Source of the DNA: Escherichia coli
GTDB taxonomy: Bacteria > Pseudomonadota > Gammaproteobacteria > Enterobacterales > Enterobacteriaceae
Direction: 5' to 3' (one strand)
Length of the DNA: 64,000 nucleotides
Assembly: GCF_030013595.1 (NCBI RefSeq)
Contig: NZ_CP122768.1
The position numbers were made by a program, and so were the translations under genes. The notes under the pieces were generated by a model, which saw only the letters and a program-made list of their open reading frames with translations, ran no database searches and had not been told where the DNA came from. Positions within the stretch are counted from its first letter, which is position 1. Every line of letters begins with the position of its first letter. Of the stretch, positions 38,970 through 56,870 are shown piece by piece.

Positions 38970-39043
38970 GCGGGCGTAGTTCAATGGTAGAACGAGAGCT
39001 TCCCAAGCTCTATACGAGGGTTCGATTCCCTTCGCCCGCTCCA
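38970..39043 (+). tRNA. glyU: tRNA-Gly, anticodon CCC
   Basis: 74 nt GCGGGCGTAGTTCAATGGTAGAACGAGAGCTTCCCAAGCTCTATACGAGGGTTCGATTCCCTTCGCCCGCTCCA; cloverleaf, T-loop GGTTCGATTCC, encoded CCA. Confidence 0.95.
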
Positions 39044-39044
39044 A
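39026..39044. repeat. attL: 19-bp direct repeat (tRNA-Gly 3' end) at the left island junction
   Basis: TTCCCTTCGCCCGCTCCAA is identical to 53083-53101. Confidence 0.85.
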
Positions 39045-39207
39045 ACAAACATTTCTCAACGTCTACTAAAGTCCATCAAACCCACGAATATCAAGCCTTC
39101 CAGCCATTTTCATAGTTTATTAACGTCTACTCACAACCACCAGAATCTACACACAGAAGTGTATAGTAATGCGTATAGGACAAAATTTATTTTTTGGAGC
39201 TATACAC

Positions 39208-40422
39208 ATGCTGCTTTCAGACCTTGCCATCAGGCGCGCGAAGCCGAAAGAAAAGGCTTATACACTCAATGACGGTAACGGGCTTTCGTTGCTCATTGAG
39301 CCGAACGGTTCGAAAGGGTGGCGACTGCGCTACAGGTTTGCAGGAAAGCCCAAAATGTTGTCGTTGGGTGTGTACCCTGATGTGTCTCTGTCTGATGCCA
39401 GGGCGGCAAGGGATGAGGCTAAAAGGCTTCTTGCTGGTGGTATAAATCCAAGTGAGGCCAGAAAAGCCCAAAAGCGAGAACAGGCGAGCAAATTTGGCAA
39501 TACTTTTGAGGGTATTGCTCGCGAATGGTACGAAAAGCGGATCGACAGGTGGTCATCGTCATACGCCGAGGAAATGATCGAGACGTTTGAAAAAGATGTT
39601 TTTCCGTACATTGGCGGTAGGCCGATCGCAGAAATTAAGCCGATGGAATTGCTGGCGGTTCTTTCCCGTCTTAATGACCGTGGTGCGACTGAAAAATTGC
39701 GTAAGGTTCGCCAGCGATGCGGCGAGGTGTTCCGGTACGCAATCATCACCGGACGCGCCGAATATAATCCAGCCCCTGACCTGGTGAGCGCATTTGCTCC
39801 ACATAAAAAAGAGCATTACGCCTATTTGAAGGCCGACGAACTGCCGGAATTTTTCCGCGTTTTTAATACGTACACCGGAAGCCAGATCGTCAAACTGGCA
39901 ATGCGGCTATTAATTCTGACAGGTGTCAGACCCGGGGAATTACGGCAGGCAGAATGGCAGGAGATCGATTTTGATAATCGTTTGTGGGAAGTGCCTAAAG
40001 AACGAATGAAGATGCGCCGTCCGCATTGTGTGCCATTACCAGAACAGGCGATAAAAATACTGGAGCAGTTAAAAAACATGACAGGCCAGTATCAGTTTAT
40101 TTTCCCCGGTCGTATTCACCACAGTAAGCCAATGAGTGAAATGGCGATGAATGTGCTCATTCGTCGTATCGGCTATGCCGGGCGCGTTACTGGTCATGGA
40201 TTCCGGCACACCATGAGCACCATTTTGCATGAGCAGGGCTATAACACCGCGTGGATAGAGACGCAGCTCGCACACGTCGATAAAAACTCAATTCGTGGCA
40301 CATACAACCATGCGCAATATCTGGATGGTCGCCGGGAGATGCTCCAGTGGTATGCCGACTATATGGATTCGCTCGAGCATGGCGGTAACGTGGTGCATGG
40401 CAAGTTCGGAAAATGTGGATGA
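39208..40422 (+). CDS. int: Tyrosine recombinase, P4-type integrase
   Basis: N-terminus MLLSDLAIRRAKPKEKAYTLNDGNGLSL...WRLRYRFAGKPK and catalytic-region residues (HGFRHT, LAH...RGTY); start after GGAGC. Confidence 0.9.
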   Translation: MLLSDLAIRRAKPKEKAYTLNDGNGLSLLIEPNGSKGWRLRYRFAGKPKMLSLGVYPDVSLSDARAARDEAKRLLAGGINPSEARKAQKREQASKFGNTFEGIAREWYEKRIDRWSSSYAEEMIETFEKDVFPYIGGRPIAEIKPMELLAVLSRLNDRGATEKLRKVRQRCGEVFRYAIITGRAEYNPAPDLVSAFAPHKKEHYAYLKADELPEFFRVFNTYTGSQIVKLAMRLLILTGVRPGELRQAEWQEIDFDNRLWEVPKERMKMRRPHCVPLPEQAIKILEQLKNMTGQYQFIFPGRIHHSKPMSEMAMNVLIRRIGYAGRVTGHGFRHTMSTILHEQGYNTAWIETQLAHVDKNSIRGTYNHAQYLDGRREMLQWYADYMDSLEHGGNVVHGKFGKCG

Positions 40423-40550
40423 CTGGTTGCGTATACAGTAGTAGACTTTGAGCGACGAAAGAAAAGGCTGTGTCTAGGGTCGCTCCCGAAAATCCGTACA
40501 CCTCGACGGACTGGTACAGCCACTACAGTAGAGGACGCTGAGGTGTGCGT

Positions 40551-41348
40551 ATGATTGATATTCATGCCGAATTAAACGAATACAAAAAAGATTTTATTTC
40601 TTTACGTGAATTTCTTGAGGTCGTGCTTAAGGTCGCTGGTGATGATTATGATGTTTCAGATGTCATAACTTGGATACTCAGGAGAATAAGCGGAGAACAT
40701 ATCCGCCTGTACACAGTAAATGAATTTAAGCTGTTGGAATCTTTTTGTAACCCGTATCGGGATGAATTTGATTATGATGTTCTTTATAGAAATCTGAATG
40801 CGGTTCGGAAACGTGGTTGTTTACCTGGTGAGAGGGATGAAAATGGTTTTCTGGTGTCCGGTTATTGGGAAGATCCCGAATTTGAGAACATTGGATTTAT
40901 AAGGGGTGAAATTTTCGCAATTTTTCCCGATGTCCTTGACGCGTTAACGAAGCTGGAAGGCGCTAACTCTTCTGAAAATGACGAGGCACAAGGACGCGAT
41001 ATTGAAAAGAAAGAGTTGCGTACAGAGGATGATTTATTATCCCAAATCGCAATGCTGGAAAAAGAAAACGCAGAGTTAAGGGCAAGGATAGAGCAGTTAG
41101 AGCAAGAGCGCCCGATACACTTATATAAATACTGGGATAAAGACCCATTAGCTAAGGCTATTGAGATTAGAAACAGAGAGTGGGCCAATTACGATCCAGA
41201 AAATGATTTTGCCACCAGGGGAAATCAAGAAGCGATAACCAGGGAGCTTAAGCAGTGGGGGGCAAGTAATGCACTTGCAACGCTCATAGAGAGGACTGCC
41301 TGCCCTATTAACCGAGACAACAGCCAAAAGAACGCAAAGCCGGATTAA
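40551..41348 (+). CDS. Hypothetical protein, AT-rich orphan cargo gene next to the integrase
   Basis: 265-aa ORF behind a GAGG Shine-Dalgarno; central coiled-coil stretch (LSQIAMLEKENAELRARIEQLEQER); visibly lower GC than int; no motif I recognise. Confidence 0.6.
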   Translation: MIDIHAELNEYKKDFISLREFLEVVLKVAGDDYDVSDVITWILRRISGEHIRLYTVNEFKLLESFCNPYRDEFDYDVLYRNLNAVRKRGCLPGERDENGFLVSGYWEDPEFENIGFIRGEIFAIFPDVLDALTKLEGANSSENDEAQGRDIEKKELRTEDDLLSQIAMLEKENAELRARIEQLEQERPIHLYKYWDKDPLAKAIEIRNREWANYDPENDFATRGNQEAITRELKQWGASNALATLIERTACPINRDNSQKNAKPD

Positions 41349-41363
41349 CGCACCATACCGCAT

Positions 41364-41507
41364 ACCCTGAGGGTGATTTACTGTTACCCTGAGGGTATTT
41401 TTTTATCTTCCCCGTCAATTTTACCATCACCCTTAGGGTAGATTTCCTCCCGATTACCATCACCCTTAGGGTTAATTTCCTTCCGGTAACCATTAGGCCT
41501 GAGGGTA
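41364..41507. repeat. Five copies of the palindromic motif CCCT(G/T)AGGGT, including a ~33-bp tandem direct repeat; putative operator upstream of alpA
   Basis: Copies at about 41364, 41386, 41428, 41461 and 41494; unit TTACCATCACCCTTAGGGT(A/T)(G/A)ATTTCCT occurs twice. Confidence 0.6.
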
Positions 41508-41575
41508 TGAAAATATTCGTTATTTCTGTGCCAGGATTACCTCGTCAAATTGAGTAGACGTTATGAGGTAAATAT

Positions 41576-41773
41576 ATGTCAAATACGCTTATTCGTTTAA
41601 CAGAAGTTCAGCGTAGAACTGGATATAGCAAGGCATGGATTTATCGCCTTATGGGGCAAGGTAAATTTCCTGCATCAGTTAAAATTGGCTCGCGAGCTAT
41701 TGCTTTCGTTGAGAGTGAAATTGACGAGTGGATTAATCAGCGTATTGCGGAATCACGCGGAACAGCTACCTGA
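41576..41773 (+). CDS. alpA: AlpA-family phage transcriptional regulator / excisionase-like
   Basis: 65 aa, MSNTLIRLTEVQRRTGYSKAWIYRLMGQGKFPASVKIGSRAIAFVESEIDEWI, the canonical AlpA HTH. Confidence 0.8.
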   Translation: MSNTLIRLTEVQRRTGYSKAWIYRLMGQGKFPASVKIGSRAIAFVESEIDEWINQRIAESRGTAT

Positions 41774-41850
41774 TTAAATGGCTACGGGGCTATTGCCCCC
41801 AGCTATCCACCAGCAAATAAAAGTAACTTAATTCGATAGCAGGAGTTTTT

Positions 41851-42651
41851 ATGAAATTTCCAAAAACGCCCGTACAGGGGCGGGGCTTCGTTCGGCCTGA
41901 AAACCAGAATCTGCAAAATTTCGGCGAAATTATCCCGGTTATTTCCGGCGTTATTGGCGGGAGTGAAACCACTATTGTTAGCGCCAGAGCGTTACATAAG
42001 GCGTTAGGTGTAGGGCGCGTTTTCCGTTCGTGGATCAAGGGGCGCATTGAAGAATACGGGTTCACGGAAGGCGTGGATTATGAGGTTGTTGAATATTTGA
42101 GCCGACCCGATCCGGTGAGCGCAAAATCTCGCCAGCAAACCGCTCTTGAGTACATCATCACAGTGAACATGGCGAAAGAACTGGCGATGGTCGAGCGCAC
42201 CGAACAGGGCCGCGCCGTTCGTCAGTACTTCATCAAATGCGAGGAGGAGCTACACAAGGTTGCGCCTGTTCGTTCCGCAGCGTTACGCCGGGAACTGAAA
42301 GCCCGTATCACCGTTGCCAGTTACTTTAAGCCGATGTGCGCCGCGCTGGAGGCGTACCGGGCTGAACTGGGTAAAAACACGTTCCAGCACCACTACACCA
42401 CGGAAGCCAATATGCTGGCGCGTATCGTGCTGGGTGGCATGACTGCAAAACAGTGGGCGCAGGCGAACGGCATCACAGGCGAACCACGCGACCACATGAG
42501 CACGTTGCAGCTTGAGCACCTTTCTTACCTTGAGCAGAGCAATATCACGCTGATTGAGTTAGGCCAGGACTACCACCAGCGGAAAGCTGAATTAATTCGT
42601 CTTTCGCAGCGTTGGTTAGCCCGTCGCATGGAGGAAAACAGCCATGTGTAA
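41851..42651 (+). CDS. Phage antirepressor-like protein (AntA N-terminal / KilAC-like C-terminal)
   Basis: ARALHKALGVGRVFRSWIKGRIEEYGFTEGVDY and MAKELAMVERTEQGRAVRQYFIKCEE resemble Ant-type antirepressor domains; AGGAG Shine-Dalgarno. Confidence 0.65.
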   Translation: MKFPKTPVQGRGFVRPENQNLQNFGEIIPVISGVIGGSETTIVSARALHKALGVGRVFRSWIKGRIEEYGFTEGVDYEVVEYLSRPDPVSAKSRQQTALEYIITVNMAKELAMVERTEQGRAVRQYFIKCEEELHKVAPVRSAALRRELKARITVASYFKPMCAALEAYRAELGKNTFQHHYTTEANMLARIVLGGMTAKQWAQANGITGEPRDHMSTLQLEHLSYLEQSNITLIELGQDYHQRKAELIRLSQRWLARRMEENSHV

Positions 42652-43278
42652 CGCTCTGACCGTTACAAAAAGAGAAAGCGCCCCGTTGCCGGAGCGCCTT
42701 TGTGAACGAATAGCCTACTGCGCCATATTGCTTACTGTCTACGAGGCAGATTATAGCGTTGTGGTCGCACAGAGTGAAGGCGCTGATCACCGTTACTACA
42801 GCACGCCAGAAATGCAGAATATTTTGCTGCAAAATGCCGTTGGTCACGCCGTCCGGAAAGCAAAAAATTTTGCTGGTGGCGCGACTGATGCGATTTTGTC
42901 AGGTCGCCAGGTGCTGATCAATCTGATGTCTGATTTCGTTCTGGATAAAACAAAGGCGACCGCAGAGAGCCGCCAGTGGAAAAGCTACATACTTGAACGC
43001 ATCACCAACAATGCCACATTTGCGGCTGGTGGGCAATGTGATCAGTCAGATTTGGTTCGTTCCAAGGTTTGCAACGAGAGCTTTTTCCTGTGCTCTTTAA
43101 GGAATTTCTCAAGAGCAAACGAACAAGGTGCGAATCTTTCTGATTCATGTTCATGCGCTATATTTTTGCGTCGTTTCTTACGAGTTGGTGATGGTGTTTT
43201 GGTTGATTCTGTGTCGCTCATGGTGCTGTCCTGTAAAGCAATGCGCCTGCGTTCCTCAAACTATGGCGCTGATAGTGG

Positions 43279-43584
43279 CTATTCCTGCTCTTTGACCTTG
43301 CGTCGCTGGAGTTCTTCACGCGCGACGGTGACGAGTTGCCCGATCTCCTCGGCTGCTTTGACTCCGATTTTTTCCACCTGCGCCAGTGCATCGAGCGAAG
43401 AAACCAGGGGATTTTCTCCTCTTCCTTCTGCCTGGCGCCGGGCGATCTCCCCGCGCATGGCGGTTACTATGAATCCGGCGTTGCTTTCGCCGTCCAGTTT
43501 TACGGATTCCATGCCTTCAATAACATCATGCGGGATCCGAGCTGTCAGTGATTGTGATTTTGCGTTTTTTGAACCTGTAGCCAT
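43279..43584 (-). CDS. Putative small DNA-binding repressor (ribbon-helix-helix-like), divergent from the replication operon
   Basis: 101 aa from the ATG at 43584 behind GAGAGGA (track ORF extends to a TTG at 43599); faces a palindrome-containing intergenic region. Confidence 0.5.
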   Translation of the reverse strand: MATGSKNAKSQSLTARIPHDVIEGMESVKLDGESNAGFIVTAMRGEIARRQAEGRGENPLVSSLDALAQVEKIGVKAAEEIGQLVTVAREELQRRKVKEQE

Positions 43585-43780
43585 CTGTAATCCTCTCAAT
43601 GAAAGTGTAAGACAATATACACATAAAAAGTCTTACATAAAAGCATTGACATGTAAGCCACCCACAAATAAAGTTACTTACACCTTGTTAATGCAAGGTG
43701 CAGAAACGACGAAACCCGGCAGTGCGCGAACACTAACCGGGCTTCTAACCACCAACGATAGAGAGCTTATCGAGGTAGCT

Positions 43781-43984
43781 ATGTTAAATCATACCACACA
43801 CCCGCAAGGGCGGGACTCGCACAACCTGAATAAATACATCTGGCGTTTTATCGCCCTGAGTACGGCACAACCGCGCGTAATTCACATCGAGGCCACCAGC
43901 GAACAGGAAGCGCGTCAGCAATCTCCTGATGGCTGCGTGATGGTATTCGCTGCCCGTATTCGCCAGGAGGTGCACCATGCATAA
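43781..43984 (+). CDS. Hypothetical small protein (67 aa), first gene of the rightward operon
   Basis: ATG behind GAGGTAG; stop overlaps the start of the next gene; it is the C-terminal segment of track ORF 42644..43984. Confidence 0.4.
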   Translation: MLNHTTHPQGRDSHNLNKYIWRFIALSTAQPRVIHIEATSEQEARQQSPDGCVMVFAARIRQEVHHA

Positions 43985-44342
43985 CCTGTCAATTTCTGAC
44001 CTTAACAGCATTCAGTTTGACGAGAAATTTACCGGGCAGCTACTGGTCCATGTGGAGAACGGGCGCATAGTGCGTAATTACAACCTGCCGGATGGTGCAA
44101 TTGCCGGAAGCGTTGAAGCATTGCTGGAACTGGCAGAACGTGCGCGACTGATTAAGCCGTTAACGAGCCATCACGATGATGATCTGCATTTTACCGGACG
44201 CATGGTGAGTCACTACGAAAACGGTGTCGAGGTATCCCGCGAACGTCTGCGTGATGATTGCTGTTTCGGCACACTGCCGGAATTTATCGAATTGCTGACC
44301 GATTGCGGTTATCAGGTAATTCAGAGCAAGACGCAGGAGTAA
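43977..44342 (+). CDS. Hypothetical protein (121 aa)
   Basis: ORF coupled to the upstream and downstream genes; no recognisable motif. Confidence 0.5.
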   Translation: MHNLSISDLNSIQFDEKFTGQLLVHVENGRIVRNYNLPDGAIAGSVEALLELAERARLIKPLTSHHDDDLHFTGRMVSHYENGVEVSRERLRDDCCFGTLPEFIELLTDCGYQVIQSKTQE

Positions 44343-44348
44343 AAAACC

Positions 44349-44639
44349 ATGAAAAAGAAAAATTCTGGCTTTACTGCCAGCGGCCCCGCTCGGCCTGAAA
44401 TCAGACACGGCGATATTTACCGCGACACCAGACGCGGGGGACGAGTGGTTATTCGTCACGTTACGCCAGGCAATATCACCTACCGCCGCGAGGCTTACGA
44501 ATATGACTGCGTAATGCCGCGCCGTCAGTTTGAGCGTGATTTTATTCTGGTGGAAAACAAACAACAGGCGGTGGCGAGACGTGCAGCCACGAATATTAAA
44601 AAAATCCGGGCAATGTTGGTTGCGGGAGGTAAGAAGTGA
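44349..44639 (+). CDS. Hypothetical protein (96 aa)
   Basis: AGGAG Shine-Dalgarno; stop overlaps the GTG start of the primase gene. Confidence 0.5.
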   Translation: MKKKNSGFTASGPARPEIRHGDIYRDTRRGGRVVIRHVTPGNITYRREAYEYDCVMPRRQFERDFILVENKQQAVARRAATNIKKIRAMLVAGGKK

Positions 44640-46384
44640 AAAACGCACCGAATTTGAAATATCAGCCGAAGGATAAATTCACTGAGGTTATCATTTTTGC
44701 CGGGACGGATGCTTACGCCCATGCCCAACACTGGATTGAAAGCGAAGGACGAAAACATGGCGATAACGTGCCACCCGTTTATCTGGGGCCAAAGCAACTG
44801 GCAGACCTGGCGAATATCCGCATTGTCGACGATGAACGCCGCTTTGCGCGTGTTTATATCGCGGGGGAGATAGAGCCAATCCAGATCAACGCTATCGCTG
44901 AAAAACTGGCGCTGGCTGGCGTACAGGAGGCGAAATTATACAAAGGCATCACCGACCGGGAGCCGGAGAACTGGCGCGATTACCTGCAACGGTTACGCGA
45001 ACAGGCTGAGCGCGGAGAAATTCTGTCAGGAAGGACCGAGAAAAAACACAAAATATCTCTTTCCAGAATGGCGGACAGCCAAAGGGCAAAACTTTTAGCT
45101 GAACGATTTCAGGATGTAGCAATGAATCAGGAGAGTGAGGTTGTCCACGTCTGGCGCGATGATTTTTGGGTTCCGGTAAGCACACTGGATCTTAGTCGTG
45201 AAATGGTGGCTATTTACGAAGAAAACGGAACAGCGTTTAGCCGGAGAGCAATAAGCAATGCAGTGGATGCTTTAAAAGTTATGGCCAGGCCAATGGGGGA
45301 GCCGTCAGGTGATTTATTGCCGTTCGCTAATGGCGTGTTTGACCTGAAAACTGGCGAATTTTCCCCGCACTCGCTGGATAACTGGATCACCACGCATAAC
45401 GGCATTGAGTACACGCCACCAGCACCAGGGGAGAACATCCGCGACAACGCGCCAAACTTTCATAAATGGCTTGATCACGCTGCAGGAAAAGACCCGCGAA
45501 AGATGATGCGTATATGCGCTGCGCTGTACATGATTATGGCTAACCGGTACGACTGGCAAATGTTTATTGAGGCCACAGGAGACGGCGGGAGCGGCAAGAG
45601 CACATTTACGCACATAGCCACCCTTCTGGCAGGGAAACAGAACACGGTAAGCGCCGAAATGACATCGCTTGATGATGCTGGCGGGCGTGCACAGGTTGTC
45701 GGAAGTCGTCTTATTGTCCTGACAGACCAGCCGAAATATACAGGCGAAGGATCGGGAATCAAGAAAATAACTGGCGGCGACCCCGTGGAAATTAACCCGA
45801 AATATGAGAAGCGTTTCACAGCAATTATCAGGGCTGTCGTGCTGGCAACAAACAACGTGCCGATGATATTCACCGAACGGGCCGGAGGCGTTGCACGTCG
45901 ACGTGTAATTTTTCAGTTCGATAATATTGTAAGGGAGGCCGAAAAGGATAAAGAATTACCGCAAAAGATAGCGGCAGAAATACCTGTCATTATTCGTCGA
46001 CTGCTTACTAACTTTTCAGATCCAGAAAAAGCACGAGAATTATTGCTTGATCAGCGTGACGGTGCCGAAGCTCTGAAAATAAAACAGGAAACTGATCCTG
46101 TCATTGGGTTATGTGCGGCGCTTGCATTTCTTGACGAACCGCATGGAATGATGATGGGAGGCGGTAAGAGAACAGTTGACCTTAACCCACGTACAAGTCT
46201 GTACAGGCTTTATCTTGCCTTTATGGAGTACATAGGCAAAGAAGAAAAATTAAGTGTTAATGATTTTGGTAAGGCCATGAAGGCGGCTGCAAGAGAATAT
46301 GGAGCTGAATATCTGACCAGAGGTTTTAAAGGACGAACACAAACTAACGTTATAAGAACGGAGAGAACCGAGGAATTTTTATAA
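44636..46384 (+). CDS. Phage/plasmid primase-helicase (P4-alpha / PICI Pri-Rep type, SF3 P-loop)
   Basis: Walker A GDGGSGKST and Walker B-like LIVLTDQP; GTG start behind GGAGG; iterons immediately downstream. Confidence 0.85.
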   Translation: MKNAPNLKYQPKDKFTEVIIFAGTDAYAHAQHWIESEGRKHGDNVPPVYLGPKQLADLANIRIVDDERRFARVYIAGEIEPIQINAIAEKLALAGVQEAKLYKGITDREPENWRDYLQRLREQAERGEILSGRTEKKHKISLSRMADSQRAKLLAERFQDVAMNQESEVVHVWRDDFWVPVSTLDLSREMVAIYEENGTAFSRRAISNAVDALKVMARPMGEPSGDLLPFANGVFDLKTGEFSPHSLDNWITTHNGIEYTPPAPGENIRDNAPNFHKWLDHAAGKDPRKMMRICAALYMIMANRYDWQMFIEATGDGGSGKSTFTHIATLLAGKQNTVSAEMTSLDDAGGRAQVVGSRLIVLTDQPKYTGEGSGIKKITGGDPVEINPKYEKRFTAIIRAVVLATNNVPMIFTERAGGVARRRVIFQFDNIVREAEKDKELPQKIAAEIPVIIRRLLTNFSDPEKARELLLDQRDGAEALKIKQETDPVIGLCAALAFLDEPHGMMMGGGKRTVDLNPRTSLYRLYLAFMEYIGKEEKLSVNDFGKAMKAAAREYGAEYLTRGFKGRTQTNVIRTERTEEFL

Positions 46385-46401
46385 GAGTAATGCCTGCAAC
46401 A

Positions 46402-46691
46402 GGTAGACGGGTAGATATTGGGTAGATGCTAGTTTTATGGATGCCTACCCGCTGAATCCCTTGCGCCACAAGGGATTCAGCGAAATAGGTAGATAGGGTA
46501 GACAATATCTCGCTTAAAAACTTTTTTACGCAGCGAAAGGAAAATACAGGTTAGAGAATGGAGAGTTAAAAGAAAGTCACTTTTACTATCTACCCTATCT
46601 ACCTAATAGATAAAAGTTGTTTTTTATCATTGTGTTAAGTGGGTAGATAACCGTTTCTTTGTTGTCTACCTGTTATCTACCTTGTCTACCC
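46402..46691. repeat. Putative replication origin: at least 11 copies of the iteron GGGTAGA(T/C) in both orientations, an 11-bp-arm hairpin and an AT-rich stretch
   Basis: Iterons at 46402, 46409, 46420, 46488, 46496, 46588, 46597, 46641, 46664, 46675 and 46684; inverted repeat CTGAATCCCTT/AAGGGATTCAG at 46452-46480. Confidence 0.7.
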
Positions 46692-46760
46692 ATAAGATGA
46701 AAGTACCGGATACGCCGTGAAGGTGCAGGCAGTGAAGCCCTGGTTATCGCATGTACCAAG

Positions 46761-47108
46761 ATGAAGGATGCGGAGGAACTGAAAGAAATGGCTTGCGATT
46801 TGCGCGAGGTTGAGCTTTTCAAGGATGAAGGCGGGGAGTTAATCACGTCGTTGGTGCTGGAGGATAAGCCCCGCCCACCCGTTGAACTGGAGCGCATCGA
46901 GTACGCTGCTAACAAGACAGAGAATCACGACGCGCTATGGGGCTGTATCCGTTCACGCACACAGCGCGGCGATAAATGCACTATCCCGTTGTTGCGCGAT
47001 GACATGAAAAAGCTGGGGTATGAGATGAAACACTTCCGGCGCTGGCTGTACAAGCTGGAAAGCGACGGCGTAATCGCTATTGACGGTGATTATGTGCGCC
47101 CACTGTAA
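46761..47108 (+). CDS. Hypothetical protein (115 aa)
   Basis: ORF only; sits between the origin and the GTGAGGA array. Confidence 0.4.
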   Translation: MKDAEELKEMACDLREVELFKDEGGELITSLVLEDKPRPPVELERIEYAANKTENHDALWGCIRSRTQRGDKCTIPLLRDDMKKLGYEMKHFRRWLYKLESDGVIAIDGDYVRPL

Positions 47109-47495
47109 AAAGTGAGGAGCAAAAGTGAGGATGGCGGGTAATTTAACAAAAAATCAACGCCACTCCTCACTTTCTCACCTGTATATAGGTCAAAAAGTGA
47201 GGAGTTAAAAACACATTGCAAAACAACAGATTACAACAATAAAGAAAACGACTGAGGAGCAGAACAAGAATAATAAAAAGTGAGGAACAAAAGTGAGGAA
47301 TGGTGAGTTAATAGAAATGAGGTAATAAAAATAACAGGTAGGTTAAAAAACACACCATGCAAGATATTAACTAAAACTTAACTATTTACCTCACTTTTGC
47401 GTATATATAAGGATTAAAAAGTGAGTACTTAAAAATACATTTAAAATCATATTGTTATTAACTTCATAAATTTTCACTGTGCAGCAGGTGAGGAA
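47107..47495. repeat. AT-rich non-coding array of at least 8 copies of AAAGTGAGGA (both orientations)
   Basis: Copies at about 47107, 47121, 47161 (inverted), 47193, 47276, 47289, 47388 (inverted), 47417 and 47487; no ORF of 60 aa or more. Confidence 0.6.
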
Positions 47496-47574
47496 TTAAA
47501 AAATCAGGAATGTTAAAAATGAAAACAGAATGTTGTGTCAGTGCCGTTGGGCAACGTAGCAACCAGTAAAAACG

Positions 47575-48117
47575 ATGGGGCAAAGCATGACTAAGCTGAC
47601 CATTAACAGAAAACCGAAAGGCATTTACGGCACGCCGCAGAAAACGACGCAGGCGGCGCAGGAGCAGGATAAAACCACATCGGCGCATAAAGTGATGCCC
47701 GGTAACCAGAAAGCGCAGCAGAAGCCCACAGGGGCGACACCGTGGCGGCATATGACCAAACGCCAGCGCAAAAACCGCAGGCGCGTTAACCGCCTCACTG
47801 AGTTGTGGCCTGAATTATTCAGCCGGGAAGCACCGAAGCCGCTTAAGGTGGGGATATTCGACGACCTGATGCAGGATCTCGCCGTCAGGGGGCTGGCATT
47901 CGGTCCAGGGGCATTGCGTGCGACGCTGGCATCTTATGCGCAGTGTCCGCGCTATTACCGCGCCTTAATGGCTGGTGGGGTACGCTACGACCTGAAAGGC
48001 CAGCCGTGCGGCGAGGTGACACCACAGGAACAACAGGACGCCGAAACGCGGCTGGTGGCGCTGAATGAGAAGCGCAAACGTCAGCGCCGGGCAGCAAAGG
48101 AGAAAACAGGCGCATGA
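47575..48117 (+). CDS. ProQ/FinO-domain RNA-binding protein
   Basis: LTELWPELFSREAPKPLKVGIFDDLMQDL...RATLASYAQCPRYYRALMAGGVRYDLKGQPCGEV parallels the recalled ProQ N-terminal domain (RFPHCF...RPLKIGIFQDL...RVDLDGNPCGE). Confidence 0.7.
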   Translation: MGQSMTKLTINRKPKGIYGTPQKTTQAAQEQDKTTSAHKVMPGNQKAQQKPTGATPWRHMTKRQRKNRRRVNRLTELWPELFSREAPKPLKVGIFDDLMQDLAVRGLAFGPGALRATLASYAQCPRYYRALMAGGVRYDLKGQPCGEVTPQEQQDAETRLVALNEKRKRQRRAAKEKTGA

Positions 48118-48401
48118 TTCACGACAGCAAAGCGGAAGCACTGGAAGCGCGTGGTCTGTACCGGAGAGCGGCGGCGCGGTGGGCTGAGGTCATCATGCTG
48201 GCGAATGATGACAAGGCACGGGAACAGGCGGCAAAACGTCGCGCGGAATGTATCCGCAAGGCAGCACGCCCACCAGCAAGGCAGGATAATTTCGGGGAAA
48301 TGCGCGAAACCATCAGCCGGGCACATGCCGGGATGGGATTACATCAGCCCAATGGTAAGGCATTCAGGAAATACCCTGGATCGAAAAATTGCAGTCAGTG
48401 A
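48114..48401 (+). CDS. PerC-family transcriptional regulator (copy 1)
   Basis: MIHDSKAEALEARGLYRRAAARWAEVIM...RRAECIRKA matches the PerC/Pch family signature as I recall it; ATGA overlap with the ProQ/FinO gene. Confidence 0.7.
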   Translation: MIHDSKAEALEARGLYRRAAARWAEVIMLANDDKAREQAAKRRAECIRKAARPPARQDNFGEMRETISRAHAGMGLHQPNGKAFRKYPGSKNCSQ

Positions 48402-48405
48402 CAGA

Positions 48406-48430
48406 AGCCGGGATTTTTCCCGGCTTTTTT
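48406..48430 (+). terminator. Rho-independent terminator after the PerC-like gene
   Basis: AGCCGGG-attttt-CCCGGCT followed by a T6 run. Confidence 0.75.
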
Positions 48431-48442
48431 GTGCCAGTAAAA

Positions 48443-48477
48443 AGCCCGCAGCCAGAAGTGTTGCGGGCTTTGTTTTT
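48443..48477 (+). terminator. Second tandem rho-independent terminator
   Basis: AGCCCGCA...TGCGGGCT followed by TTGTTTTT. Confidence 0.65.
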
Positions 48478-48596
48478 CAGGTGATTGAAGTCAATGGGAA
48501 GAACGCGATCATCATGCGTTATCGCTTCATAAATTGCAACGATGTAGATCGTTATTTCAGTTTGTGCAATCATAATCATTGTTTTGTTCAGGAGAT

Positions 48597-48776
48597 ATGA
48601 CTATGAGAAAAGCCAGCGTGAAACCCGTTTTACTCGCTCGTGATCAGATTGAAGCATTACAGCGCATCCAGGACGAGGAACGCCGCAATTCTCCGCTGGG
48701 GATTGCTCCGAGCATTCATGAGGTCGCCCGGCGTTTAATGCAGCGGGCGCTTTATCCCGTAGAACGTCCGGCCTGA
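48597..48776 (+). CDS. Hypothetical small protein (59 aa)
   Basis: ATG behind CAGGAG; MTMRKASVKPVLLARDQIEALQRIQDEE... Confidence 0.4.
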   Translation: MTMRKASVKPVLLARDQIEALQRIQDEERRNSPLGIAPSIHEVARRLMQRALYPVERPA

Positions 48777-48815
48777 TGGTCGTGATTTTTTGGTGAAAAA
48801 AGAGAGGTGGTAAAA

Positions 48816-49400
48816 ATGCCAGCAAGCAAAGAAGATTTGCGATTAAAACTGATGGAGGTGGTTAACGCTCTGTCAGAGTCGCAGGGCAGCACTCCGCAGG
48901 AGATTATCGAAATTCTGAATGCGATCCCCGCACAGGATTTCACAAAAGCGGACGAGGATGACGCGAATAAAAACATCGTCGCGTCAGTCGAAGATGAATC
49001 CTCACTGGCAGAAGCCCAGGCTAAAGCGGATTCCGCATACAGCAATATGGGCCGTCGCGCTCCAGCCCCGTTTGCTGGTGAAAAGTCGATGGATTACCGC
49101 AAGCGTGCATTAATTGGTGCACAGAAGCTGGCTAAAAAATTCAGTGATGTGGATATTCGTTCCGTTTCAGATTCTGCAACGCTGGCGGTGCTGGAAGATC
49201 AGATTTACCAGGCTGCAAAAGACAGTGTTCAGTGGGCTGTGGAAAATACGCCGGGCTATTTGCGTAAAACCGTAAGAATGGATGAAGCCGGACGGCGGAT
49301 TACTGAATATCAGGGGGATCCGAATAACTGGCTTAGTGCTTTCAAAATCCCTCCCCGTCGCCTGGTTAAAATTAACGTTGCAAGCCTCGCGGGGGCATGA
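48816..49400 (+). CDS. Hypothetical protein (194 aa)
   Basis: ATG behind GAGGTGG; acidic, with predicted helical regions; no recognisable motif. Confidence 0.5.
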   Translation: MPASKEDLRLKLMEVVNALSESQGSTPQEIIEILNAIPAQDFTKADEDDANKNIVASVEDESSLAEAQAKADSAYSNMGRRAPAPFAGEKSMDYRKRALIGAQKLAKKFSDVDIRSVSDSATLAVLEDQIYQAAKDSVQWAVENTPGYLRKTVRMDEAGRRITEYQGDPNNWLSAFKIPPRRLVKINVASLAGA

Positions 49401-49464
49401 AAAACGTGCTGATTTCAGCCCTGCCGGATTTGGTGGGGCTTATTGCTTATAACCGGGGGACATT

Positions 49465-50118
49465 ATGCTTTTAACAGAAATTGAGGCGGCAAAGCAGATT
49501 CGGGACGGTCAGCTACCGTCGCCTTATCAGTTTTCCAACATGTGGCTGATTAACCTGCGTATCACAGGAACCGGAATGGCCTATCGCGCCGAAGAAAAAG
49601 AATTTGTCTGGCGTTCACCGCAAACTTATCTCAATCCGCAGTTCCTGGAACGTTGCGCCGGAGTACCCGTCATTATCGACCATCCCGAAAGCAAAACCCT
49701 TGAAGACGTGGGCGAACGGTCGCGCATTATTGGCACCGTTATGTTGCCGTATATTCGCGGTGACGAGGTGTGGGGCGTATGCCGGATTTACGGGCAGGAA
49801 ATCATCGATTACATCCAGAAAGCACGGGGGGAGGTATCCACCAGCCCGTCGGTTGTGTTTTGTGGTGCGTCCGGTGGGGCAGAAGTTCCTGATGTAATGG
49901 GCGAGGACAATTTTTTCATTGAGGGTACGCCATTTCTTATCGATCACGTTGCGCTCGTACCGTTGGGCGTATGGGATAAGGGCGGGAAACCATCAGGTGT
50001 GGAAGTAACAACGCCGACAGAAGAAGAACAGCTCGCCGGAATGGTCCGTGAAGTTATTGATGCGGCCTGCAAGCCAGCCCTGGAAAAACTGGAAGAAATA
50101 TCCGGGCGCTGGCTATGA
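49465..50118 (+). CDS. Hypothetical protein (217 aa)
   Basis: ORF behind a GGGGGA Shine-Dalgarno; no recognisable motif. Confidence 0.5.
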   Translation: MLLTEIEAAKQIRDGQLPSPYQFSNMWLINLRITGTGMAYRAEEKEFVWRSPQTYLNPQFLERCAGVPVIIDHPESKTLEDVGERSRIIGTVMLPYIRGDEVWGVCRIYGQEIIDYIQKARGEVSTSPSVVFCGASGGAEVPDVMGEDNFFIEGTPFLIDHVALVPLGVWDKGGKPSGVEVTTPTEEEQLAGMVREVIDAACKPALEKLEEISGRWL

Positions 50119-50288
50119 ATCGTGGGATTGTCCCTGCAGCAGGAAACAATGATCAGAACGTTAAGTTGGAAATTGTTCGGAACGCTGGTGCCGATTACTT
50201 CGCGCAACTAATTGGTGCTCAACGGTTCCTGGGATGATTTAAATACACGCGCTTTCCGGCGCATTAATACAGTCTGAGGGGAAGTGTC

Positions 50289-50813
50289 ATGTTTATGAGC
50301 AAGGCAGAATATGCCAAACACAAAGGCGTAAGCCGCCAGACAGTTTACGACTGGATCGAGAAAGGCGAAGTGGTCATGTCCGGTAAAAAAATCGATGTGG
50401 AAGCGACAGAGCAGCGGAACAGCCCACCAGCACAGGGAAAAGATACCGTTTCTGAAATGTGGCCAGAGAGAACGCTGGAAATGACGTGGGGCGAGTTCTG
50501 GAAAGCAGTTAAGGCCAGAGACGGTAAAATCCCTGCACCAGTAACGGACGATGACATACAGCAGCGTGTGCAGGATGCAGCCGGGGAACTATGCTGTGAA
50601 GTGCAATTTCTTGATGATGGTGCTATCTGCCTTGAGGATTATGCTGGGCAATATTACTTTGAGCAGTATGATTTTCGGGAAAATGCCAGGCTGGCAATTC
50701 GTATGCTGCGTTGTGAGCTCTGCTATGTTGCAGGTGATTGTCCCGATGAGCTGGATAACTGGAGTGAAGCCGGACTAAACGCCCTGGCTGAGTGGGAAAA
50801 ATCATCCCATTAA
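50289..50813 (+). CDS. HTH-domain protein (small-terminase / Rpp-like N-terminus)
   Basis: N-terminus SKAEYAKHKGVSRQTVYDWIEKGEV is a typical HTH as seen in phage small terminase subunits; followed by a repeat array. Confidence 0.5.
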   Translation: MFMSKAEYAKHKGVSRQTVYDWIEKGEVVMSGKKIDVEATEQRNSPPAQGKDTVSEMWPERTLEMTWGEFWKAVKARDGKIPAPVTDDDIQQRVQDAAGELCCEVQFLDDGAICLEDYAGQYYFEQYDFRENARLAIRMLRCELCYVAGDCPDELDNWSEAGLNALAEWEKSSH

Positions 50814-50826
50814 TGACCGTAAAATT

Positions 50827-51110
50827 CGCGAAAAGTGTCAAGTCAGGCCGTCTGCCGGGTTGACACTTTACACTCTGAACGCGAAAAAGTGTCAACCTCG
50901 CTGTAAGCCCCGCCATTACTGGCCTTTCGCCAGATTTACCACGTCAAAAAGCCGAAAAAATCGCGAAAAGTGTCAAGTTGCCATGCTTAGAAATGCTAAG
51001 GTTTGATAAGGTTTTTCGCGAAAAAGTGTCAAGTGTGTCAACCTGCGATGTTAAGATTTGTTAAGGTCTTAAGCCGGAAAGTGTCAACCAGCCCCTAAGA
51101 TTTCCTAAGG
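50827..51110. repeat. Array of at least 6 copies of CGCGAAAAGTGTCAA plus three TAAG(A/G)TTT doublets
   Basis: Copies at about 50827, 50861 (inverted), 50880, 50960, 51016 and 51078; non-coding. Confidence 0.6.
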
Positions 51111-51118
51111 TGTAAATC

Positions 51119-51409
51119 ATGACCATCACCGAAGCCGATATGCTGGAGATGATCCGCAGCATTGCCGGAATCAGACCACCAGCAGGCAAACAGGAGGCCA
51201 CGCAGCCGGACAGCGTTATCGCTGAGAACTATGCGCGTGTGGTGGCTGAGGTGATGCGCCGTGACGGTATTGAGCTTAACGGAGTGGATATGCGCGACAT
51301 ACGCACCAGGGTACTCGAGTTATTGGCCTACCGTCGCCGCGTGCAGATGTACCGGGAGAGCGAGAAAAAGACTTACCAGTGGAAGAAGCCGGAGCGGTTA
51401 CGGCGGTAA
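51119..51409 (+). CDS. Hypothetical protein (96 aa)
   Basis: ORF behind an AAGGTG Shine-Dalgarno. Confidence 0.45.
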   Translation: MTITEADMLEMIRSIAGIRPPAGKQEATQPDSVIAENYARVVAEVMRRDGIELNGVDMRDIRTRVLELLAYRRRVQMYRESEKKTYQWKKPERLRR

Positions 51410-51459
51410 CCAGTTGATAAAAAGGCTCCTCAATTTTGAGGAGGGTAGCTGGTGGCTGG

Positions 51460-51481
51460 CAGAATGTAAATTTACATTCTG
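51460..51481. terminator. Perfect 22-bp palindrome between convergent genes (bidirectional terminator or protein site)
   Basis: CAGAATGTAAATTTACATTCTG, preceded by a second hairpin CTCCTCA-attt-TGAGGAG at 51426-51443. Confidence 0.5.
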
Positions 51482-51511
51482 GTGATTTAATCATCTGATT
51501 TACCCGATGGC

Positions 51512-51802
51512 TTACCTTACCAGGCCATAGCGGATTACCGTGCAATGCGCACCATCGCCACCAATACGCACATCAAAACGTGGCTCACGGACTTTCACAC
51601 GCTCCAGCAACTTATCACGAACCATAGCGTTTAGCGTCCTTCGTGTTGCCTCTATGTGATATCGCTGATATTCGGAACCATAGAGCAGCACTGTAACACC
51701 ACGAACATCAAAAGGTGGATCTCCAGCCTCCACCCGCACCCAATCGCGATACTCAGGTTTGTAGAGTTCAAGGATCTGTTTTTTGTGCCTGGTCATTCTC
51801 AT
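51512..51802 (-). CDS. Hypothetical protein (96 aa)
   Basis: Minus-strand ORF with a protein-like composition; palindromic operator upstream. Confidence 0.45.
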   Translation of the reverse strand: MRMTRHKKQILELYKPEYRDWVRVEAGDPPFDVRGVTVLLYGSEYQRYHIEATRRTLNAMVRDKLLERVKVREPRFDVRIGGDGAHCTVIRYGLVR

Positions 51803-51916
51803 GCGTGCAACTCCTTATTGTGGGACAGTACTGTCATACAATAAGCTATACGGAAAATTATCAAAAGAACAGAAACCAACCATTCAGATTTAACAGGTAT
51901 CAATGGGATTATGCTT

Positions 51917-52219
51917 ATGGTGCATGATGACAAAGCGGAAGAACTGGAAGCGAAAGGCTTATGGCGACGGGCGGCTAATCGCTGGGGTGAGTTACTGAAA
52001 CAGGCGGCAAGTGATGAAGCGCGTCAGTATGTAACGGAACGACGAACGGCATGCATCCGGAAGGCAACCATAACCCGGGAACCGGAAAGAGACCTGATTT
52101 GTGCCATAAGAACCGCCGCCACAAAAACACTAACGGATATGGGGATCGACCTGAAAAAAGAAGATCCACTGCGGGGCATTCAGCACGGACATACAAAGCA
52201 GGATAAACGCAGGAAGTAA
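51917..52219 (+). CDS. PerC-family transcriptional regulator (copy 2)
   Basis: MVHDDKAEELEAKGLWRRAANRWGELL...RRTACIRKA parallels copy 1 at 48114 (clear paralogue); alternative ATG at 51911. Confidence 0.7.
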   Translation: MVHDDKAEELEAKGLWRRAANRWGELLKQAASDEARQYVTERRTACIRKATITREPERDLICAIRTAATKTLTDMGIDLKKEDPLRGIQHGHTKQDKRRK

Positions 52220-55233: not shown

Positions 55234-56139
55234 CTATATTTCCAGACATCTGTTATCACTTAACCCATTACAGGCCCGCTGCCGCAGATATTCCCGTGGC
55301 GAGCGATAACCCAGCGCACTATGCGGATGCCATTCGTTATAATGCTCGAACGCCTCTGCAAGGTTCTTTGCTGCCGTTAACCCGTCTGGTTTGGGCATGA
55401 TACTGATGTAGTCACGCTTTATCGTTTTCACGAAGCTCTCTGCTATTCCGTTACTCTCCGGACTCCGCACCGCCGTGTTCTTCGGTTCAAGTCCCAACAT
55501 CCGGGCGAACTGGCGTGTTTCATTAGCCCGGTAGCATGAACCATTATCCGTCAGCCACTCCACTGGAGACGACGGAAGATCGTTGCCGAAGCGGCGTTCC
55601 ACCGCTCCCAGCATGACGTCCTGTACTGTTTCACTGTTGAAGCCGCCGGTAGTCACCGCCCAGTGCAGTGCCTCACGATCACAGCAGTCCAGCGCGAACG
55701 TGACACGCAGTCTCTCTCCGTTATCACAGCAGAACTCGAACCCGTCAGAGCACCATCGCTGATTGCTTTCTTTCACGGCCACTCTGCCTGTATGTGCCCG
55801 TTTCGATGGCGGTACAGCAGGTTTTCGCTCAAGCAACAGCGCATTCTGGCGCATGATCCGGTAAACACGTTTGGCATTGATCGCAGGCATACCATCAAGT
55901 TCTGCCTGTCTGCGAAGCAGCGCCCATACCCGACGATAACCATACGTGGGCAGCTCTCCGATAACATGGTGTATACGGAGAAGCACATCCGTATCATCAG
56001 TGTGACGACTGCGGCGGCCATCCATCCAGTCATCGGTTCGTCTGAGAATGACGTGCAACTGCGCACGCGACACCCGGAGACAACGGCTGACTAAGCTTAC
56101 TCCCCATCCCCGGGCAATAAGGGCGCGTGCGCTATCCAC
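55234..56139 (-). CDS. insD: IS2 transposase OrfB (DDE integrase core)
   Basis: 301-aa ORF matching IS2 InsD as recalled. Confidence 0.9.
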
Positions 56140-56462
56140 TTTTTTGCCCGTCCATATTCAACGGCTTCTTTGAGGAGTTCATTTTCCATCGTTTTCTTGC
56201 CGAGCAGGCGCTGGAGTTCTTTAATCTGCTTCATGGCGGCAGCAAGTTCAGAGGCAGGAACAACCTGTTCTCCGGCGGCGACAGCAGTAAGACTTCCTTC
56301 CTGGTATTGCTTACGCCAGAGAAATAACTGGCTGGCTGCTACACCATGTTGCCGGGCAACGAGGGAGACCGTCATCCCCGGTTCAAAGCTCTGCTGAACA
56401 ATTGCGATCTTTTCCTGTGTGGTACGCCGTCTGCGTTTCTCCGGCCCTAAGACATCAATCAT
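56097..56462 (-). CDS. insC: IS2 transposase OrfA
   Basis: [52 protein letters not shown]...; HTH; overlaps insD for -1 frameshift fusion. Confidence 0.9.
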
Positions 56463-56870
56463 CTGTTCTCCAATGACTAGTCTAAAAACTAGTATTAAGA
56501 CTATCACTTATTTAAGTGATACTGGTTGTCTGGAGATTCAGGGGGCCAGTCTAAATAGAATCGAAAAAGAGAATAAAATATATGCAGGGAGTAACAAAAC
56601 ACTCGCAGTGCGTTAATGTGTAACTAACAAATATGATTTTTATTGAAAATAGTCACCAAATAAGTGTTATAAGAAATACGGGGTATGTTTAAGTAAAACA
56701 TATCAACAGTTGCAATTCTGTATATGGACAGGATGACTTACTACTGTAAGTGGCTGATAGCTATTCGCTCATAACAAAATCATTATTTTATAAATAGGAA
56801 TCATCACTTTTTAATCATGTTTTTATTGCAAGTTTATGGAGAATGAGAATATGGAATAAGGAGATGAAAC

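Follow-up and report, generated by a model that had tools for sequence, protein, structure and literature searches.

A 64,000-nucleotide stretch of Escherichia coli DNA (assembly GCF_030013595.1, contig NZ_CP122768.1; the window) carries a phage-inducible chromosomal island (PICI) in which the gene for a 174-residue protein, named here HTH174 (50289..50813, plus strand), is followed by a repeat array (50827..51113, plus strand). Protein and array together probably represent an undescribed way for PICIs to enter helper phage capsids. We judge the chances to be about even that they form a packaging-specificity module working like Rpp with cosB, or like a small terminase subunit (TerS) with pac. 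The proposal draws on the linkage of gene and motif across relatives, the fold of the N-terminal domain, the equivalence of the slot that the unit occupies to that of known packaging genes, and the absence of any other packaging determinant. The unit is not described in the searchable literature, where searches with the motif and with protein-accession strings returned nothing relevant.

Enterobacterial PICIs often have no recognisable terminase, Rpp or cos site and are hence scored as incomplete or possibly defective; the packaging route of EcCIMP1, a verified island, is unknown (PMC11773190). The HTH174 unit is a defined candidate for this missing function, comprising a 174-residue protein with an orphan domain and a 300-bp site.

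HTH174 and its repeat array

The first-pass annotation, made from the window alone, had described a 174-residue protein with a small-terminase-like N-terminal helix-turn-helix (HTH). Both statements hold: the open reading frame (ORF) at 50289-50813 (+) is real, and its best profile match is the PHROG family of lambda Nu1-type TerS (phrog_57, E 5e-7), confined to residues 1-42. An AlphaFold2 model built from the family alignment is confident (predicted local distance difference test, pLDDT, 88.7) and contains two domains, a winged HTH (residues 1-44, nt 50289-50420) and an α/β C-domain (residues 61-170, nt 50469-50798; pLDDT 94.6 when modelled on its own), joined by a disordered linker (residues 45-60). 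The phrog_57 match spans positions 11-57 of the 199 in the profile and so falls short of full-length Nu1-type homology; true PICI-encoded Nu1-type TerS proteins match the profile end to end (E 1e-64). The validated RppA likewise matches at its N-terminus only (residues 7-47).

Structural comparison lists as the top match of HTH174 an excisionase, Xis of Mycobacteriophage Pukovnik (7.2), followed by the TerS DNA-binding domain 7lxs (6.9), lambda TerS (6hn7_B, 6.6), BldC (6.1), RdfS (5.8), RppC (6hn7_A, 5.8) and P2 Cox (5.6). The N-domain is a winged helix of the lambda-Nu1/Rpp/Xis type, and for HTH174 the fold alone does not separate TerS and Rpp reading heads from excisionases and repeat-binding regulators. 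Sequence searches gave only weak generic HTH families in Pfam and sub-threshold excisionase, YlxM and RacR matches in NCBIfam; the weak matches in PHROG and NCBIfam taken together include Cox-like, excisionase and RacR models. A sequence search of the PDB gave no real match, and phage genomes gave none to the protein or to the array DNA. The C-domain is an orphan fold. On the grounds of this domain and of cos, HTH174 belongs to neither the Rpp nor the TerS family.

A spacer of 305 bp, dense with repeats, leads from the HTH174 stop codon to the start codon of the next gene (51119). It holds seven GTGTCAA cores (six on the plus strand, one on the minus) within 260 bp, the first lying 17 nt past the stop codon. 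On the left are site 1 (GAAAAGTGTCAA, 50830..50841, plus strand), site 2 (50860..50869, an inverted copy on the minus strand that reads TTGACACTTT on the plus strand) and site 3 (AAAAAGTGTCAA, 50884..50895, plus strand). A central conserved element of 28 nt follows (CGCTGTAAGCCCCGCCATTACTGGCC, 50898..50925, plus strand). The right half consists of three composite units spaced by about 55 bp, each pairing GTGTCAA with a TAAG doublet: site 4 (GAAAAGTGTCAA, 50965..50976) with TTAGAAATGC and doublet 1 (50997-51014), sites 5 and 6 (AAAAAGTGTCAAGTGTGTCAA, 51021..51041) with doublet 2 (51052-51069), and site 7 (GGAAAGTGTCAA, 51076..51087) with doublet 3 (51096-51113), all on the plus strand. The second half of doublet 3 doubles as the ribosome-binding site of the gene at 51119-51409.

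The 9-mer AAGTGTCAA occurs seven times in the window, six times in 50833-51087 (five plus, one minus) and once elsewhere, against a shuffle expectation for the whole 64 kb of 0.54 on average and 3 at most; the seventh GTGTCAA core is that at 51035-51041. The first-pass annotation had counted at least six copies of the 15-mer CGCGAAAAGTGTCAA. The repeat array is real, but the full 15-mer is present in two to four copies only, two of them exact (50827, 50962) and two with an extra A (50880, 51017); the remaining copies share just (A)AAGTGTCAA or GTGTCAA, and the core common to all is (G)AAAAGTGTCAA. Three TAAGRTTT doublets had also been reported. Three doublets with 10-bp spacing do exist, in the form TAAGRTTT-N2-TAAGGT, but the second half-sites of doublets 2 and 3 depart from TAAGRTTT. 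The octamer itself has seven matches in the window, a number that 19 of 100 shuffles attain, so that overall it shows no enrichment; four of the seven cluster in 50997-51103.

Alignment shows the blocks of the array to be shared by Escherichia, Pantoea and Raoultella loci and by two IMG/VR contigs. What is conserved best, and all that a minimal subfamily retains, is the pair formed by sites 2 and 3 (−,+; 27-30 bp apart), which is kept even in relatives with 37-40% protein identity. The central element CGCTGTAAGCCCCGCCATTACTGGCC is common to the Escherichia, Pantoea and Raoultella arrays and to two further relatives (L147, L017); neither it nor the CGCG flank is found in the minimal-subfamily arrays. 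Across the alignment, the right side contains three or four units of GTGTCAA plus TAAG doublet, and the same doublet is present in arrays of other genera. In one relative (L038, ~9000-9050), the octamer GCTTGCCA is tandemly expanded to about five copies between site 1 and the inverted site 2, so the spacing of these two sites is unconstrained.

A consensus scan of the array found no sigma-70-like promoter and no terminator, and the hairpin that sites 1 and 2 could form has a loop of variable length and no T-run; a promoter and a terminator were rejected on these grounds. An RNA gene or riboswitch was rejected as well, as an Rfam search of the array gave no match to either. Repeats arranged around a distinct centre recall the R sites of lambda cosB, pacL-pacC-pacR of SPP1 and the hexamer-flanked pac of P1, as analogies only.

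At least 161 complete E. coli genomes have gene and array together, and nine or more other Enterobacterales genera have the unit too, with HTH174 homologues of 34-99% identity in Citrobacter, Pantoea, Rouxiella, Serratia, Raoultella, Enterobacter, Lelliottia, Pseudocitrobacter and Mangrovibacter. Residues 1-41, including the recognition helix VSRQTVYxW, are near-invariant, and the remainder diverges freely. The repeats, which the first-pass annotation had placed directly downstream of the gene, indeed begin in the spacer after HTH174 and are conserved with it across genera: the motif is retained downstream of homologues of 34-63% identity in six genera, with a consensus (GAAAAGTGTCAAC) identical across all genera. 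In 12 loci from other genera, retrieved via the protein alone, GTGTCAA occurs 27 times in the 400 nt after the gene, where 0.2 are expected, and eight times in the remaining 186 kb (enrichment ~130-fold, Poisson P ~2e-47).

The reverse search, by DNA only, scanned 2.9 million viral contigs for the pattern TTGACACTT-N8-38-AAGTGTCAA and returned 120 loci, in 81 of which the motif pair lies no more than 103 nt from the end of a full-length homologue (median 46 nt). A sister family, HTH194, was found in seven further loci (L127 12200-13037; L082 8667-9490; also L048, L099, L100, L124 and L045). These ~190-residue proteins have the same N-terminal HTH (MSRQALYSW) and a different C-terminus, and their GTGTCAA array lies directly upstream of the gene, which is the cos-terS order. 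At least one of these loci, L127, is likewise a satellite, of another type, with integrase, Ant, primase, a tail-fibre-assembly-like gene, array, HTH194 and cargo; the cargo beside HTH194 in L124 is, by sequence only, an OLD/AAA-type ATPase. Loci with dense GTGTCAA and no HTH homologue (for example L095, L118, L097 and L123) resemble unrelated origins of phages and were not considered further. That an invariant reading head accompanies an invariant motif in two protein families is the pattern expected of a cognate protein-site pair, with binding predicted. A cluster of repeated candidate recognition sites beside the protein's own gene is also what a TerS-type system would have.

The packaging slot and its island

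In the island EcCICFT073, the head genes are followed by cos1 (GGGCGGCGACCT), rppA, a reversed cos2, a 96-residue gene and attR. In the window, HTH174 and the array replace cos1-rppA-cos2, with the array exactly at the position of cos2 and the homologous 96-residue gene (phrog_1561; 51119..51409, plus strand) beyond it. To survey this slot, 80 IMG/VR PICI loci (L154-L233) were retrieved via the 96-residue gene alone. The gene just upstream encodes a Nu1-type TerS in 33 of the 80 loci, the large terminase subunit (TerL) in 24, an RppA-like protein in four, another TerS (phrog_141) in one and HTH174 in one; small or uncalled ORFs make up the rest. In many of the 80 loci, a cosN in forward orientation precedes the terminase gene and a reversed one lies ~73 nt before the 96-residue gene, the place that the array occupies in the window. 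In this PICI backbone, TerS, TerL or Rpp almost always has the 96-residue gene as its neighbour on the right; the gene has no useful phage match.

Islands with HTH174 have no such alternative. A tblastn search over the loci, including about 100 that bear HTH174 with flanks, found no TerS or Rpp in them, and TerL matches solely in three loci without HTH174. Neither lambda cosN nor P2 cos was found in the 15 HTH174 islands checked (this island and 14 related ones), and a hidden lambda or P2/P4 cos site in the island was accordingly rejected; GGGCGGCGACCT, allowing up to one mismatch, is also missing from these 15, whereas the EcCICFT073 control shows both of its cos sites. The smallest family members consist of int, alpA, DUF4222, primase, a ribbon-helix-helix (RHH) gene, one 261-residue gene, the HTH protein, the array and cargo. 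If those islands are transferable, HTH174 with its array is the sole candidate packaging determinant in them. The first-pass suggestion of an island packaging-recognition unit is partly supported, by the PICI, the packaging slot and the TerS-like N-domain.

The host element (38970..52219 or beyond, plus strand) is an AlpA-type Gram-negative PICI, because its backbone matches that of EcCICFT073, with which it is syntenic. The primase is 71% identical to its EcCICFT073 counterpart, PerC 53%, DUF4222 52% and the 96-residue gene 69%. The element has an integrase, alpA, a primase with an iteron origin, a late block and accessory genes; it falls in the 8-20 kb range, lies at a tRNA gene, and is without a complete complement of structural or lysis genes of a phage. 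It starts at tRNA-Gly(ccc) (38970-39043) and continues with int (39169-40422), the int-alpA RNA between the integrase gene and the next (Rfam RF02996, 40467-40534; 45.5 bits, above the gathering score), alpA (41576-41773), the antA/B, Icd-like and DUF4222 genes, and a 582-residue primase (44636-46384). Directly after the primase gene, 46398-46700 holds dense GGTAGA(T/C)A iterons in both orientations around an AT-rich stretch. This is probably the island's replication origin; the tested origin of EcCICFT073 occupies the same place (PMC6092414).

A ProQ/FinO gene separates the origin from the remaining genes. PerC-family regulator genes stand on either side of the packaging slot (48114-48401 and 51911-52219), two in one island; the PerC-like gene of the related EcCIMP1 represses the locus of enterocyte effacement (PMC11773190). 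A small gene assigned as RHH-like from its sequence pattern (48579..48776, plus strand) opens the late or "packaging" block and accompanies HTH174 in nearly all loci. The idea that it is the specific partner of the TAAG doublets was weakened by EcCIMP1, which has the RHH gene without HTH174 or the motif.

Two head-gene fragments (48807-50118) follow. The 197- and 217-residue ORFs of this region (48807-50288; the latter DUF2213) match the C-terminal and central parts of phrog_6216 (545 positions) with their order swapped, and also a 430-residue head-module protein of phage Rac-SA53. Compared with the close relatives L001 and L002, a 205-residue gene and a 680-residue lytic-transglycosylase gene have been deleted here between 50118 and 50289. 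An attempt to identify the helper failed: the remnants of head and tail genes have their matches among genes of Rac-SA53-type phages, but the late region of Rac-SA53 is without GTGTCAA.

Conservation between islands stops just after the array, ~70 nt into the 96-residue gene in many E. coli relatives, and the array thus stands directly before variable cargo that includes anti-phage systems. In strain 55989 this cargo is a pair of AAA-ATPase and DUF4435 genes, strain 83972 has a gene for an RNA-binding-domain protein there, and Lelliottia has other large genes. The array is ~11 kb from attL and int, and in relatives 1-6 kb of variable cargo separates it from the right end. In the minimal subfamily (L011-L016), the core ends ~280-330 nt past the HTH stop codon at CTCTAAGTTACAGTTG, preceded by TTGTCAAAACTTGTCAC, and the islands differ beyond; this end point may mark an outward promoter, or else a border at which cargo is exchanged by recombination. 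Staphylococcus aureus pathogenicity islands (SaPIs) are reported to carry accessory and defence genes between the pac site and the island end, where they can be shuffled by lateral transduction (PMC12829572). The core-array-cargo order fits this picture and by analogy suggests rightward packaging. If the array is a pac site, it would set the start and direction of packaging for the cargo genes and for neighbouring chromosomal DNA.

Some further features of the window lie apart from the packaging slot. Within the island, ~1.3 kb (42644-43984) has only an implausible 446-residue ORF on its plus strand; on the minus strand, a 106-residue ORF (43279-43599) is likely the YlcI/YnfO-family gene that is annotated here in relatives, and a SymR-like Rfam match at 43708-43780 is weak and sub-threshold. 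Beyond the island are a two-ORF, IS2/IS3-like insertion sequence (55234-56507, minus strand; 136-residue and 301-residue transposase ORFs) and, after it, type III secretion system genes of the ETT2 type with a secretin from 57617. The insertion sequence and the secretin were identified from sequence only.

A proposed packaging role and its alternatives

Were HTH174 and the array to act in packaging, a helper phage that induces the island would cause HTH174 to be made from the late block. The winged helix, of Nu1 type, is predicted to bind the GAAAAGTGTCAA sites that lie immediately downstream of the HTH174 gene: three left-hand ones, among them the inverted pair, and four right-hand ones that each go with a TAAG doublet. 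The orphan C-domain would recruit the helper terminase, through TerS or TerL, and the helper motor would start on DNA of the island instead of the phage, probably in headful (pac-type) fashion, with packaging running rightwards through the variable cargo towards attR. For this unit DNA binding, terminase recruitment, the cut site and the direction of packaging are what we infer. A more specific form of the proposal, to which we give somewhat less than even credence, is that the unit is a third satellite-packaging solution in Gram-negative PICIs, in which a Nu1-type head and an orphan adaptor capture a pac-type helper terminase and load it on an island-only, multi-site pac array. In that case, many "type C" PICIs that score as possibly defective because they lack packaging genes would be working satellites, with their defence cargo positioned for lateral transduction.

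Several observations weigh against a packaging role. The C-domain resembles neither the oligomerisation and TerL-binding regions of TerS nor the helical domain of Rpp. An HTH174 homologue is absent from 50,697 phage records, so no helper partner can be named. No cut site is identifiable. The central 28-mer resembles plasmid origin DNA, which a packaging module leaves unexplained. Near-identical units stand beside differing helper-like head and tail gene sets, for example the Rac-SA53-type genes here and unrelated genes in strain 55989. Such constancy is unexpected for an adaptor to a single terminase and suits a helper-independent regulator. The lack of GTGTCAA in the late region of Rac-SA53, counted with these points, is neutral and neither supports nor refutes a packaging role.

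The strongest competitor, also raised in the first-pass annotation, is a regulator with its operator. HTH174 may be a transcription factor whose winged HTH binds GTGTCAA co-operatively, as Cox, Xis and BldC do on repeats, with the array as its operator and no part in packaging; it would control transcription of the 96-residue gene and cargo, or insulate the cargo from late-gene read-through. We consider this unlikely in either version. Members of the fold family such as BldC, P2 Cox, RdfS and Xis are regulators or architectural proteins with direct repeats as their binding sites, and the weak profile matches are to Cox-like, excisionase and RacR models; the array fills the entire spacer up to the ribosome-binding site of 51119-51409, and in the HTH194 family it stands directly upstream of the HTH gene like an autoregulated operator. 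Yet the array contains no sigma-70-like promoter by consensus, it is constant while the downstream genes vary between islands, and the 96-residue gene occurs without it in EcCICFT073-type islands. Seven sites and a second motif over 300 bp are also a lot for an operator, and the explanation would leave about 100 otherwise complete islands without a packaging determinant. If it is nevertheless correct, the array would be a conserved control point at the boundary of island core and cargo.

Resemblance to plasmid DNA raises the thought of a second, plasmid-like replication or maintenance origin, with GTGTCAA as iterons, HTH174 as the origin-binding protein and the 28-mer as a host-factor element. 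The central element (50898-50925) agrees at 26 of 28 positions with a stretch that, in P1-like plasmids of the SJ46/p0111 type (L151 2925-2952), lies between the GATC-rich region and the RepA iterons, a match carried by about 300 plasmids and several P1-like phage records. It agrees at 25 of 26 positions with iteron-adjacent DNA of the small plasmid pEh22_2 (L153 4632-4657). Repeats flanking a conserved core are an origin-like layout, and the E. coli copies read TTGAC...CGCGA, resembling RepFIB-type iterons (TTGACTRTACGCGA). Still, we regard such an origin as improbable: an iteron origin is already present directly after the island primase, as in tested PICIs (PMC6092414), the array is not AT-rich, and the 28-mer and the CGCG flank are lacking in the minimal subfamily. 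Structure comparison found in HTH174 no Rep-like fold such as a Rep-family initiator beside its iterons would have, and among 72,556 plasmids the protein has one match, limited to its N-terminus. The central element might be a host-factor site or recombined origin DNA; both are possibilities. That the array serves as the origin of the island's own primase was rejected, given the separate GGTAGA iterons after the primase gene (46398-46700); islands with the same HTH174 and array also differ in their primase type.

We find it very improbable that HTH174 is a recombination directionality or architectural factor of the Xis/Cox kind that bends DNA at the repeats for island excision or cargo exchange, even though its top structural match is an excisionase, excisionases bind direct-repeat arrays, and the boundary between conserved and variable DNA lies just past the array. 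At its distance from attL and int, and separated from attR by cargo in relatives, the array is outside the attP arms where the sites of such a factor belong. AlpA already occupies the canonical position, and HTH174, with its extra domain, is twice the size of known directionality factors, which are small single-domain proteins (~50-100 residues).

Comparison with known systems

Xis, Cox, BldC and RdfS are among the systems closest to HTH174, being MerR-like winged HTH proteins that bind direct-repeat arrays. However, they are single-domain proteins of 50-90 residues that act at att sites or promoters, whereas HTH174 has two domains and its array is at neither. Lambda gpNu1 with the R sites of cosB (phrog_57; PDB 1J9I, 6hn7_B, 7lxs) shares the winged HTH fold and the motif R-x-T-[IV]-x-x-W-x-x-x-G, and in both cases several sites in mixed orientation cluster near the gene, as predicted for HTH174. 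PICIs with the same backbone often hold a true Nu1-type TerS in the same slot, as the survey of the 80 loci showed. In contrast to gpNu1, HTH174 matches the profile no further than residue 42 of its 174, has neither a coiled-coil region for oligomerisation nor a C-terminal TerL-binding region, and has its sites downstream of the gene with no cosN adjacent.

The Rpp (redirecting phage packaging)/cosB system of EcCICFT073-type PICIs (Fillol-Salom et al. 2019, PMC6739421; PDB 6hn7) shares with HTH174 the island backbone and the slot before the conserved 96-residue gene. Both proteins are small, with a Nu1-type winged HTH that matches phrog_57 at the N-terminus only; neither has a phage homologue beyond the HTH, and in both the cognate DNA site, a candidate one for HTH174, adjoins the gene. 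They differ in length (174 residues against 139-154 for Rpp) and are identical at only 10 of 25 residues, all inside the HTH. The C-domain of HTH174 is α/β, unlike the three-helix (α4-α6) domain of Rpp, which serves homo- and heterodimerisation and binds phage TerS. Furthermore, the HTH174 unit is without lambda-type cosQ or cosN, and has a 300-bp multi-copy array downstream where Rpp has a single proposed R3-like site upstream.

With TerS and pac of SaPIs, which are pac-type PICIs of Gram-positive cocci, the differences lie in the protein, since SaPI TerS is a full homologue of phage TerS while HTH174 has no phage homologue, and in headful packaging, which for HTH174 islands is a proposal only. 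The arrangement is nevertheless alike: a specificity protein encoded by the satellite, as proposed for HTH174, at the end of the late operon; a site specific to the satellite and not found in the helper; and accessory genes between that site and the island's end.

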